Assembly: GCA_046045965.1 (NCBI GenBank)
Contig: JBJOKS010000015.1
Coordinates: 32,001-96,000, forward strand
Source: Cyanobacteriota bacterium
Lineage (GTDB): Bacteria; Cyanobacteriota; Cyanobacteriia; Cyanobacteriales; Nostocaceae
Direction of reading: 5' to 3'
Length of the DNA stretch: 64,000 nt
The stretch's first letter is position 1. Each line of letters opens with the position of its first letter. The position numbers and the translations under genes were made by a program. A model generated the notes under the pieces. It did no database searches, was not told the DNA's origin, and was given only the letters and a program-made list of their open reading frames with translations. Below, in pieces: positions 45,896 through 48,167 of the stretch.

Positions 45896-45902
45896 AATAA
45901 TG

Positions 45903-45974
45903 CTGGGGCGCTAGGATTCGAACCTAGGGATGGCGGGACCAAAACCCGCTGCCTTACCACTTGGCTACGCCCCA
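45903..45974 (-). tRNA. trnQ: tRNA-Gln (UUG)
   Basis: Minus strand reads TGGGGCGTAGCCAAGTGGTAAGGCAGCGGGTTTTGGTCCCGCCATCCCTAGGTTCGAATCCTAGCGCCCCAG: cloverleaf, TTG anticodon, CCA not encoded. Confidence 0.97.
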
Positions 45975-45991
45975 ATGACTCAGCTTTAAAT

Positions 45992-46022
45992 AATATAGCA
46001 GTAACCATATAGGTTCTGTCAA
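45992..46022 (-). promoter_or_regulatory. Putative tRNA promoter
   Basis: TTGACA-N19-TATATT with an extended -10 TG. Confidence 0.45.
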
Positions 46023-46134
46023 GTATTTTTTCAAGAAAAATTTAGAAGTCAGGAGTCAGGAATCAGGAATCAGGAGTAAAACCCTGTTGTAGTGGGAGTT
46101 TCATCAATTGATGTCCTAACCACCCTATCACCTG

Positions 46135-46377
46135 CTATAAATCCACGAATCTTTGAGAAGTCGGAAATTTGGCGCAAAAAAAAGGGAAGGTTTCTATCCC
46201 TTCCCTTGGTTTGTTGTTTTGGTTGTTTTCTGGCTTTTGCTGTTCCTTTTGCTGTTCTTTGAGCTTGTTTCTCAGCATCTGCCTTTGTTTCTTCAGTTGT
46301 CTTTGTCTGGCTGAACCGCCTCGGCCTTTGTCGTTTCTCCCTTCTTTGCGGGGTGATTCCCATCTTTTTAAGCGCAT
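46135..46377 (-). CDS. Small basic protein; candidate ArfA/BrfA-like factor expressed from a nonstop mRNA
   Basis: MRLKRWESPRKEGRNDKGRGGSARQRQLKKQRQMLRNKLK...; terminator inside the ORF. The function is an inference. Confidence 0.6.
   Translation of the reverse strand: MRLKRWESPRKEGRNDKGRGGSARQRQLKKQRQMLRNKLKEQQKEQQKPENNQNNKPREGIETFPFFCAKFPTSQRFVDL
46176..46207 (-). terminator. Intrinsic terminator inside the small basic ORF
   Basis: mRNA reads AAGGGAAGG-GAUAGAAA-CCUUCCC-UUUUUUUU. Confidence 0.85.
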
Positions 46378-46475
46378 AGTGTTTTTTGGGTGAATAATTG
46401 ACTATGAAATGCTATAGACAGCACTTGTCTTATTATACTACAAAATTTTCAATTTTTCCAGAAACTTAGAAGATT

Positions 46476-46729
46476 GAGAACGAACCACTCCAGACGCAGA
46501 GGACACAGAGAGAACTATCTGTTATTTTTGATTAGGTTAACGGTAACATCCTGTACATCCTTTAATCCTGGTTATCCTGATTCAGACTTTTTCGGTTTTG
46601 TGTATAAGTTTTTTAAAGAAACGAACCGCAGAGGCGCAGAGGACGCAGAGAGCAATTTCTGTTATTTTTTAGTAGGTTAACGGTAACATCCTGTACATCT
46701 TTTAATCTTGGTTATCCTGATTCAGACTT
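46476..46729. repeat. Direct duplication (140-nt offset) of a composite GCAGAG / CATCCTGTACATCC...CCTGATTCAGAC repeat
   Basis: 46518-46589 and 46658-46729 are nearly identical. Confidence 0.85.
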
Positions 46730-46754: not shown

Positions 46755-48167
46755 TTACAGTCCACAAGTCTCAACGCGAGAGAAGATAACTCCTCTCCCT
46801 AAACCTCCCACATTCCATTTTAACCGTGCTGGTAAGTGGCCTTCTGGTGCTTTTATATCAAAAGTAATATCTTTGTAGGATAACCATTTTCCTTCTTTTT
46901 TCCATCCTACTCTATCCCCAAAGCCTTCCCAGATTTCAGAATTATACTGTCTCGTTCCCCCTAAATTTTGATATATCCGTTGCTGTACAGAAAATCCAAA
47001 TTTACCATTACTATATTTAAGCCATAGTCTATCAATATTGTACAGGTCATCACAGGGAAAATTATCAATATTTGGAGCATCTAAAAAACCTTCTTTTTGC
47101 CGATTTGCTACTGCTAACATTACCCGCGCTGTTTCCTCATCAGCTTCTTTCCATTTACCTGCTGCTAATAATTTTTCTAGTTTTTGATACTGACTGGTTA
47201 CAGTAACAGATGGTTGAGGAATTGTTACAAGTTGTAGATATGGTGAAGGTGGTACAGGTAAAAATTTAGATGGCGATCGCTTCACATTTTGATCTACAAA
47301 ATTTAACTCCTGAATCACTTCCTTAACAGATTGATAACGATGCTTAGGAATAGGACTTGCTAATTTTTCCAGAATTTTACCTAATTCATCACTTACCACA
47401 TTCCCATTTAAAAAATCTCTCCATACCCATTCCCCTTCTATTGGACTATATAAATCAAAGGGACTAACTCCCGTTAATAAATGCAAACAAGTTACCCCTA
47501 AACTATATAAATCACTAATAAATAATGGTTTACCCATTGACTGTTCAGGAGCGCAATATTCAGCAGATCCAATAATTGTTCCTGTAGCTGTGCGTTGCTG
47601 GGGTTTAACTATTTTCGCTGCCCCAAAATCTACTAAAAATAACTTTTTATCACTGCTAAGAATAATATTTTCTGGTTTAATATCTCGGTGAATTACTTGT
47701 TGACTATGAACAAATTCCAATATTTGCAAAACTTCTATTAATAACTTTCTAATTTGCTGCTCAGAAAAAACACCATTATTATCTAACTCAGTTTGTAAAG
47801 TTTCACCTTTAACAAATTCCTGTACTAAATATTGACGATTATCATAAGTAAAATAAGCCATTAACTCAGGTATTTGAGGATGTTTACCCAACTCCTCTAA
47901 ACGTTGTGCTTCCTGTGCAAATAACTGAGATGCTTTTTCAATACTATCCGTTCCCTGTGCTTGGGGTAAAAATTGTTTAATTACACAAAAAGGTTTTGAT
48001 GGTTTATCCTCATCAATAGCTAAAAAAGTCCTACCAAAACCACCCTGACCTAAAATTGATAGAGGTGCATATCTTTCACGTAAAAGTAACTTATTACCGC
48101 ACTTCTGACAATATTGAAAATTATCAGGATTAGAAAAAAGACAGTCAGGATTAAGACATTGACGCAT
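46755..48167 (-). CDS. Ser/Thr kinase with N-terminal 4-Cys motif and C-terminal GUN4 domain
   Basis: CLNPDC..CQKC, GQGGFG, HRDIKPEN and DFG motifs; GUN4 blocks WKEADEET, WLKYSNGKFGFSVQ and PEGHLP. Confidence 0.93.
   Translation of the reverse strand: MRQCLNPDCLFSNPDNFQYCQKCGNKLLLRERYAPLSILGQGGFGRTFLAIDEDKPSKPFCVIKQFLPQAQGTDSIEKASQLFAQEAQRLEELGKHPQIPELMAYFTYDNRQYLVQEFVKGETLQTELDNNGVFSEQQIRKLLIEVLQILEFVHSQQVIHRDIKPENIILSSDKKLFLVDFGAAKIVKPQQRTATGTIIGSAEYCAPEQSMGKPLFISDLYSLGVTCLHLLTGVSPFDLYSPIEGEWVWRDFLNGNVVSDELGKILEKLASPIPKHRYQSVKEVIQELNFVDQNVKRSPSKFLPVPPSPYLQLVTIPQPSVTVTSQYQKLEKLLAAGKWKEADEETARVMLAVANRQKEGFLDAPNIDNFPCDDLYNIDRLWLKYSNGKFGFSVQQRIYQNLGGTRQYNSEIWEGFGDRVGWKKEGKWLSYKDITFDIKAPEGHLPARLKWNVGGLGRGVIFSRVETCGL

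Follow-up and report, generated by a model that had tools for sequence, protein, structure and literature searches.

ArfA and BrfA, two small proteins that rescue ribosomes, are made from messenger RNAs (mRNAs) that lack a stop codon. According to the BrfA paper, the brfA message becomes stop-less at a terminator inside the coding region, its product of ∼62 residues is SsrA-tagged and degraded, and the protein, which recruits RF2, contacts ribosomal RNA through two N-terminal helices and places a positively charged C terminus in the mRNA channel. The arfA message is described as losing its stop codon through a terminator and an RNase III site and as being controlled by trans-translation. A third factor, ArfT, is treated in a preprint that assigns binding of the empty mRNA channel to the KGKGS motif of ArfA, with KKGGSTNKK as its echo in ArfT, and reports that arfT has neither a terminator nor an RNase III site before its stop and that an ssrA mutant shows no change in arfT mRNA; a broad ArfT-like family is described by Burroughs and Aravind. 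Here we describe a cyanobacterial gene that appears to share the stop-less design of arfA and brfA. It lies in a 64,000-nucleotide (nt) stretch of a Nostocaceae genome (contig JBJOKS010000015.1, positions 32,001 to 96,000 of the forward strand; this whole stretch is the window, and positions are counted from its first letter). A previous, sequence-only reading had suggested that the gene may be an ArfA/BrfA analogue, citing the ArfA KGKGS motif, the ArfT KKGGS motif and the internal terminator of brfA, all three of which are found in the ArfT preprint and the BrfA paper.

The gene is an open reading frame (ORF) of 80 codons on the minus strand (46377..46135), with the product MRLKRWESPRKEGRNDKGRGGSARQRQLKKQRQMLRNKLKEQQKEQQKPENNQNNKPREGIETFPFFCAKFPTSQRFVDL in the program-made ORF list. 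Both the Lys/Arg-rich ORF and the DKGRGGSARQR motif pointed out earlier are present, and residues 1–48 hold 18 Lys and Arg against 5 Asp and Glu. A consensus terminator scan of the minus strand locates a stem-loop within codons 57–66 (46182..46207), formed by the arms AAGGGAAGG and CCTTCCCTT with 9 pairs and an 8-nt loop; the stem, 46207–46182, is followed by the tail TTTTTTGCGC. The folding energy of the hairpin is −16.3 kcal/mol (z = −2.9 relative to shuffled sequences), and 44 nt separate its end from the TAG. By the length of its T run, the U tract comprises eight T (46176..46183, minus strand), starting at nucleotide 194 of the ORF and overlapping the last two stem pairs. The sequence-only reading had thus been right in both coordinates and spacing when it put a terminator at 46176–46207, within codons ∼57–67 and about 40 nt before the TAG. 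From this arrangement, the 3′ end of the mRNA is expected in the U tract 46176..46183 or a few nt further. The ORF list and the homologues together delimit the part of the ORF expected on the terminated mRNA as codons 1–67 (MRLKRWESPRKEGRNDKGRGGSARQRQLKKQRQMLRNKLKEQQKEQQKPENNQNNKPREGIETFPFF; 46177..46377, minus strand). The tail that follows, CAKFPTSQRFVDL (46135..46175, minus strand, with the TAG at 46137–46135), is unconserved when loci are compared and is probably not translated from terminated transcripts. RNA data were available as assembled contigs from four metatranscriptome runs, which show neither transcript ends nor strand and may include DNA; contigs of run X2 match 46252–46471 without a mismatch.

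Comparison of homologous loci revealed that the terminator is a general property of the gene. We fetched 78 loci, of which 71 are distinct, and sought in each the best hairpin (cut-off ≤ −9 kcal/mol) followed by at least six T in eight positions. A hairpin with a U tract lies in frame before the first stop codon in 70 of the 71 distinct loci, which come from several orders; in subsets, these are 30 of the first 30 loci and 47 of 48 further ones. Applied to controls, this procedure reported a hairpin for 2 of 142 shuffled sequences and for 2 of 71 windows taken from other parts of these loci, and it recovered the known hairpin of E. coli arfA (codons 52–66) once the T requirement was relaxed to five of eight. 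Folding energies range from −9.4 to −22 kcal/mol (median −15), and since 65 different hairpin sequences account for them, structure rather than sequence has been kept. The peptides encoded by the hairpins, such as REGIETFPFF, QGEEKLIFPLFF, RGKVNFPLFF and ERLASLFLC, are conserved only as far as the G-rich arm, the C-rich arm and the U tract impose. With stems between −9.4 and −22 kcal/mol and at least six T in the next eight positions, the sites in 70 of 71 loci match in sequence the Rho-independent terminator typical of brfA.

The reading frame itself behaves as if a stop codon were kept out of it until the U tract is reached. In the variable stretch that begins at codon 43 and includes the U tract, the frame of the gene contains no stop in 651 codons from 30 loci, whereas frame 1 contains 21 stops, spread over 17 of these loci, and frame 2 contains 43, spread over 21. 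In all 71 loci the frame is open to the U tract, except in L072, where it ends at an ordinary stop. Past the U tract, the first stop follows after a median of 16 codons in frame compared with 15 and 12 in the other frames, and identity between loci drops to 8% over the first ten codons (70 loci), compared with 82% over 34 core residues. The homologue comparison proposed by the sequence-only reading, namely whether a hairpin and U tract consistently precede the in-frame stop with unconserved sequence behind them, therefore came out in favor of the stop-less design (70 of 71 loci; 8% versus 82%), and the contrary outcome, homologues that normally stop upstream of the hairpin, was not seen, L072 alone having an ordinary stop. 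If transcripts end 8 nt past the stem, the products would have 51–84 residues, with a median of 64. Taken together, the comparison of loci supports a stop-less gene design well.

Thirty family sequences define the protein. A conserved basic segment of ∼42–45 N-terminal residues contains 24 invariant positions, including W6 E7 S8 P9 R10, G13 R14 N15 and K17 G18 G20. The architecture of the family consists of a disordered N terminus (LKRWESPRxxGRN), the motif KG[RK]GGS, a basic helix at residues 23–46 and a variable linker rich in Asn, Gln and Lys. The motif, delineated by conservation in the 30 sequences, reads DKGRGGS in the window (codons 16–22; 46312..46332, minus strand); K17, G18 and G20 are invariant, and G21 and S22 are conserved in at least 90% of the sequences. 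AlphaFold2, run on the 30-row alignment, predicts a single basic α-helix at codons 23–46 (ARQRQLKKQRQMLRNKLKEQQKEQ; 46240..46311, minus strand) with disordered flanks, and mean predicted local distance difference test scores are 87 for residues 21–30 and 94 for residues 31–40. The catalytic GGQ motif is absent from the 80-residue sequence and from the consensus of the 30 sequences, and a Pfam scan found no RF-1 domain in the 80-residue protein.

The gene is under constraint as a protein. In codons 2–41 of 30 loci, entropy at codon positions 1, 2 and 3 is 0.36, 0.18 and 1.06 bits, and pairwise codon differences between these loci amount to 7069 synonymous and 2289 non-synonymous changes. The variation at third positions and the excess of synonymous changes indicate a protein under purifying selection and not a non-coding RNA. 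A word-index search returned 1436 related proteins at E ≤ 0.01, and the names of all 120 relatives listed are "hypothetical" or "uncharacterized"; an exhaustive profile search returned 451 clusters at 50% identity (E ≤ 0.001). Matches were obtained in 57 of 61 related genomes, with one spurious match in genome G046 (E = 0.008, inside a 574-residue frame). Across the phylum, 114 of 401 sampled genomes carry a relative; carriers comprise 40 of 45 genomes of the window's own family and members of most of the order's remaining families, and 9 carriers belong to other orders. Each genome shows one significant match, and G216 shows a weak second hit (E = 5e-5). We found no relevant Pfam or NCBIfam family for the protein, Rfam recognized only the neighboring transfer RNA (tRNA), and look-alikes in the ESM Atlas were confined to unnamed cyanobacterial clusters (scores 0.91–0.93), with no named cluster among them. 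By these comparisons, the ORF represents in this genome a protein-coding gene that is old and widespread among cyanobacteria.

We next compared the protein with the known factors. Neither the protein nor the 30 family members match ArfA (PF03889) in a Pfam scan at E ≤ 10, BLASTP against E. coli ArfA gives E = 14, and hhalign against a 15-row ArfA alignment returns a probability of 1.7% over 15 columns. The only stretch paired by hhalign, without significance, aligns KEGRNDKGRGGSARQ with RVEKNKKGKGSYMRK from the KGKGS region of ArfA. The resemblance between KG[RK]GGS and KGKGS is one of motif, not of homology. A search of the family profile against all PDB chains at E ≤ 10 returned only NOP14 (E = 0.26) and no BrfA chain, BrfA entries being assumed to be among the chains in view of the published cryo-EM structure. 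No KGG family, the Pfam family linked to ArfT, is among the 12 Pfam families matched by the 30 members. In the sequence comparisons we therefore appear to be dealing with a new family that has no homology to known factors, has a stop-less design of the ArfA/BrfA type and shows an unusual link to a tRNA gene, described below.

In its design the gene comes close to brfA: both encode small proteins without GGQ (an expected 51–84 residues in the family compared with ∼62), and both have a typical Rho-independent terminator in the coding region. They differ in phylum, in the placement of the conserved basic part, which in the cyanobacterial family is N-terminal with a variable C-terminal third, and in that the cyanobacterial gene is often joined to tRNA-Leu(CAA). 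With arfA the gene shares, at the level of sequence architecture, a hairpin in the ORF upstream of the stop, as well as a Gly-rich basic motif (KGKGS compared with KG[RK]GGS) followed by further basic residues; the variable tails spread the annotated lengths in both, from 69 to 110 residues among ArfA hits and from 64 to 119 in the cyanobacterial family. The arfA hairpin, in contrast, has a weaker T tail and doubles as an RNase III site, and the ArfA motif occupies residues 34–38 behind an RF2-binding N-terminal part, whereas the cyanobacterial motif is found at residues 17–22. ArfT is likewise basic and very small, carries a KKGGS-type motif for which binding to the empty mRNA channel has been proposed, and uses RF1 or RF2; unlike the cyanobacterial gene, arfT has no terminator before its stop. 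The tails of SmpB and ArfB are positively charged helical segments that recognize the vacant mRNA channel, and the predicted helix 23–46 is of this kind, but those tails sit on folded domains (a tRNA-mimic body and a GGQ domain, respectively), and the cyanobacterial protein has none.

The genome of the window encodes the release and rescue machinery with which such a factor would have to work. It has one transfer-messenger RNA (tmRNA) with the tag ANNIVKFARREALVAA, a gene for SmpB, an RF1 of 364 residues, and an RF2 gene on contig C13 with a classical +1 frameshift site, CTT TGA C, after 24 codons (L085:820–895); the downstream frame of RF2 stays open for 348 codons when the count starts at the GAC overlapping the TGA, or for 368 when it starts at the preceding in-frame stop. 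We considered whether the candidate could be ArfB and rejected this, as ArfB is a separate gene (C17:55602–56009) and the candidate has no RF-1 domain. A 2024 survey of 15,259 genomes lists, among 162 cyanobacteria, smpB in 161, ssrA in 155, arfB in 90, arfA in 0 and rqcH in 161; in an earlier paper, ArfB was reported for 25 out of 55 cyanobacteria. In our 401 genomes, 57 have both the gene and ArfB, 57 the gene only, 70 ArfB only and 217 neither. Thus 57 of the 114 carriers have no ArfB above the curated cut-off, which leaves a plausible niche for a back-up factor.

We propose, with a probability of about 0.55, that the gene encodes an independently evolved alternative ribosome-rescue factor that is switched off by trans-translation. 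By analogy with ArfA and BrfA, we infer the steps that this entails, from the termination of transcripts in vivo and the tagging of their product to its binding of ribosomes, its recruitment of a release factor and the choice of that factor. The frame would run through the Rho-independent terminator, and polymerase stopping in the U tract near 46176 would yield an mRNA without a stop codon. A ribosome reaching the 3′ end of this mRNA would stall with a peptidyl-tRNA of ∼65 residues. As long as trans-translation works, tmRNA and SmpB would tag the product with ANNIVKFARREALVAA and so direct it to degradation; with trans-translation saturated or lost, untagged product would accumulate. It would then bind other stop-less ribosomes, where the KG[RK]GGS motif and the basic helix may occupy the empty mRNA channel and the N-terminal LKRWESPR segment may bring in RF2 or RF1, leading to peptidyl-tRNA hydrolysis as with ArfA and BrfA. 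Of the analogy drawn by the sequence-only reading, the part concerning gene design is upheld by its conservation in 70 of 71 loci, and the part concerning ribosome rescue, tmRNA tagging and release-factor recruitment is a prediction.

Several observations weigh against a rescue factor of this kind. In the searches described above, the protein showed no similarity to ArfA, BrfA or ArfT, either by sequence or by profile. ArfA, BrfA, SmpB and ArfB all use C-terminal basic tails, whereas here the basic part is N-terminal and is followed by ∼20 variable, non-basic residues. The genome already encodes an ArfB of 140 residues (C17:55602–56009; NF006718, 181.7 bits) and also an RqcH-type protein. Across the 401 genomes, the gene and ArfB show no complementary distribution, and in family f38, which has small genomes, 0 of 29 genomes carry the gene, yet ArfB is present in 29 of 29. 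In 4 of the 71 loci the stop codon starts 3–7 nt past the stem and may be on the transcript, and L072 has an ordinary stop at codon 52, giving 51 residues, and no in-frame terminator. Finally, one 589-nt RNA-library contig (run X1) spans the ORF, the terminator and the downstream tRNA-Gln, which may reflect DNA or read-through. As a side observation, L072 corresponds to G293:C141, and only 1 of 4 sampled genomes in that genome's family carries the gene.

A product made from a stop-less mRNA and gated by trans-translation need not recruit a release factor. It could report low tmRNA capacity to a different output, such as the silencing or hibernation of ribosomes, their marking for splitting ahead of RqcH, or the binding of RNA under stress. 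The architectural evidence fits this equally well, the protein has no homology to any release-factor-dependent rescue factor, and its conserved part is N-terminal, unlike in ArfA and BrfA. RqcH is encoded in this genome and, according to the survey, in 161 of 162 cyanobacteria, and ArfB co-occurs in half of the carriers. We nevertheless consider such an output, the main rival of our proposal, unlikely, though deserving of attention, given that both conserved genes of this design known to us, arfA and brfA, encode release-factor-dependent proteins, that KG[RK]GGS with the basic helix resembles factors binding in the mRNA channel, and that no conserved partner gene lies adjacent to hint at another pathway.

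The position of the gene relative to tRNA-Leu(CAA) allows a more specific version of such a non-recruiting product. This tRNA gene lies upstream on the same strand in 34 of the 71 loci, and in 23 of the 71, including loci from other orders (L061, L063, L065 and L067), it ends only 23–70 nt before the start codon; close examples are L016, L031–L058, L061, L063, L065 and L067, at ∼1470–1500 in the orientation of the gene. Several of the spacers between tRNA-Leu and ORF hold an AGAGG-like ribosome-binding site. A gap of 23–70 nt leaves no space for a promoter, so the messenger is presumably cut from a precursor consisting of tRNA-Leu, ORF and terminator. We therefore think that in the linked genomes the messenger is probably cut out of a tRNA-Leu(CAA) precursor. 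The lineage of the window has lost the link and has repeat elements upstream instead. One could imagine that the gene arose long ago in the 3′ trailer of the tRNA-Leu(CAA) gene and gauges trans-translation capacity, and that its product is not a release-factor recruiter but recognizes the empty mRNA channel and diverts stop-less ribosomes, possibly toward subunit splitting that feeds the RqcH pathway or toward reversible silencing. We regard this as quite improbable; if true, it would constitute a new class of tmRNA-gated ribosome factor.

The same linkage could also be read in a more trivial way, in which the ORF encodes an ordinary small basic protein, the overlap with the terminator stems from a compact tRNA-Leu unit, and the missing stop has no regulatory meaning, the protein being supplied by read-through transcripts or its product simply being released. 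An ORF 23–70 nt behind tRNA-Leu(CAA) in 23 of 71 loci would make its terminator the end of the tRNA unit as well; in addition, the stop falls within the U tract in four loci, L072 has a normal stop, and an RNA-library contig spans the terminator. Against this, a variable linker of ∼20 codons could hold a stop anywhere, yet 651 codons contain none compared with 21 and 43 in the other frames. Stops behind the U tract fall at random, even inside a neighboring promoter, and the arrangement persists without linkage to tRNA-Leu, as in the window, in several orders and with 65 different hairpins. In our view this makes an ordinary protein a poor, if simple, explanation of the locus.

A hairpin inside a translated frame is also what a leader peptide or attenuator would present: translation close behind the polymerase would block the hairpin, and transcription would continue into the gene downstream, here tRNA-Gln. 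Gln and Asn codons abound in the linker, and the next gene downstream in the window is tRNA-Gln(UUG), identified by ARAGORN and Rfam (45902..45974, minus strand), with a terminator-like hairpin of its own found by the terminator scan (45895–45870, minus strand). This tRNA gene follows in only 10 of the 71 distinct loci, all of them close kin, and here it apparently has its own promoter. A promoter-like TTGACA, 19 nt, TATATT was recognized by eye at 45992–46022, the scan having passed it over on account of the 19-nt spacer, and the site is conserved in L002–L006 and L009. With linkage limited to 10 of 71 loci and a promoter of its own apparent, an attenuator for tRNA-Gln is unlikely, and a Gln-codon attenuator was rejected on the limited linkage. 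The commonest same-strand gene downstream, encoding a WecG-type glycosyltransferase, is found in 25 of the 71 loci and lies ∼500 nt away in an example locus, and leader peptides do not show a 34-residue core that is 82% identical across orders. We hold attenuation of any kind to be very unlikely. A non-coding small RNA with an accidental ORF, to which a short transcription unit with a strong terminator and a protein named by no family could have pointed, can be practically discounted, given third-position variation, a ratio of synonymous to non-synonymous changes of about three to one, and a frame open in 71 loci to the U tract or to the stop of L072 while the other frames hold 85 and 120 stops in 30 loci.

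The remainder of the surroundings gives no hint of function: the neighboring genes encode a WecG-type glycosyltransferase, a flavin mononucleotide-dependent dehydrogenase and an M48 peptidase, none of which has a connection to translation. Upstream of the gene in the window, an ORF of 470 residues (46755–48167, minus strand) resembles, by eye, a Ser/Thr protein kinase with a Cys-rich N-terminal segment. A consensus scan located a promoter-like site, TGGAAA, 17 nt, TATAAT, at 46432..46460 on the minus strand (10 of 12 matches), from which a transcript would begin ∼50 nt ahead of the ATG; it is a match to the consensus only, and shuffles of the region average 1.8 such sites. Further upstream, two tandem copies of a ∼120-nt unit occupy 46470–46700. 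The ∼40-nt core of this unit, 46547–46587, has ∼136 hits in its own genome, and each of the four metatranscriptome runs shows it in numerous contigs and loose ends; this core is a dispersed small element that is probably mobile.

The tail behind the U tract has an origin that was only partly foreseen. The sequence-only reading had derived it from dispersed-repeat DNA, with a degenerate palindrome at 46141–46168. The repeat origin is only partly borne out, as 46127–46176 is single-copy in its own genome (blastn-short, E ≤ 0.01) and a dispersed element with 22 hits begins only at ∼46126, 9 nt past the stop. The palindrome stands in one respect: comparison with L002–L004 and L006 identifies 46141..46168 (minus strand) as a decayed copy of a palindromic element, GATCCCCGACTTCT..AGAAGTCGGGGATC, which L002 and L004, both close relatives, have intact at the same place and L003 has nearly intact; the genome of the window has 0 copies of the intact form. 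In L006 and L009, the tail crosses the promoter of the next gene, tRNA-Gln. Between the ORF and the tRNA-Gln promoter, tandem heptamers CCTGATT/CCTGACT are found at 46048–46078, a stretch with which close to 500 blastn-short hits in the genome overlap. In the contig from run X1, which derives from a related strain, 45902–46039 is joined to 46154–46560, and 43 other letters replace the 114 nt of 46040–46153; this replacement is a strain-level difference just past the terminator that removes the stop codon of the window. In E. coli, a small regulatory RNA derived from arfA (yrdG) is annotated across the gene's 3′ end in the RefSeq record of MG1655 (L087:5432–5485), and cut-off 3′ parts of arfA-type genes may have a life of their own.

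Literature searches, which missed most subscription journals, returned no published cyanobacterial factor of this kind. The sequence-only reading had likewise known of no cyanobacterial ArfA/BrfA analogue, in keeping with the literature found and with arfA in 0 of 162 cyanobacteria in the survey. Cyanobacteria have so far been credited only with tmRNA–SmpB, with ArfB in some, and with RqcH, and the gene may fill a gap in this inventory. If our proposal is true, it would be the third independent invention, after ArfA and BrfA, of a back-up factor that is turned into a substrate of the primary system by its own stop-less mRNA. No photosynthetic phylum would have had such a factor described before, and this one would be old, as the gene is shared across orders. 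In 23 of 71 loci the gene is tightly linked to tRNA-Leu(CAA), which suggests an unusual origin, in which the messenger is cut from a tRNA precursor. The signature of the gene, a frame that stays open across a conserved terminator and is followed by a random tail, may serve in the search for further genes of this design, and with a short, single-copy gene that occurs in culturable strains, the proposed role in ribosome rescue is directly testable.

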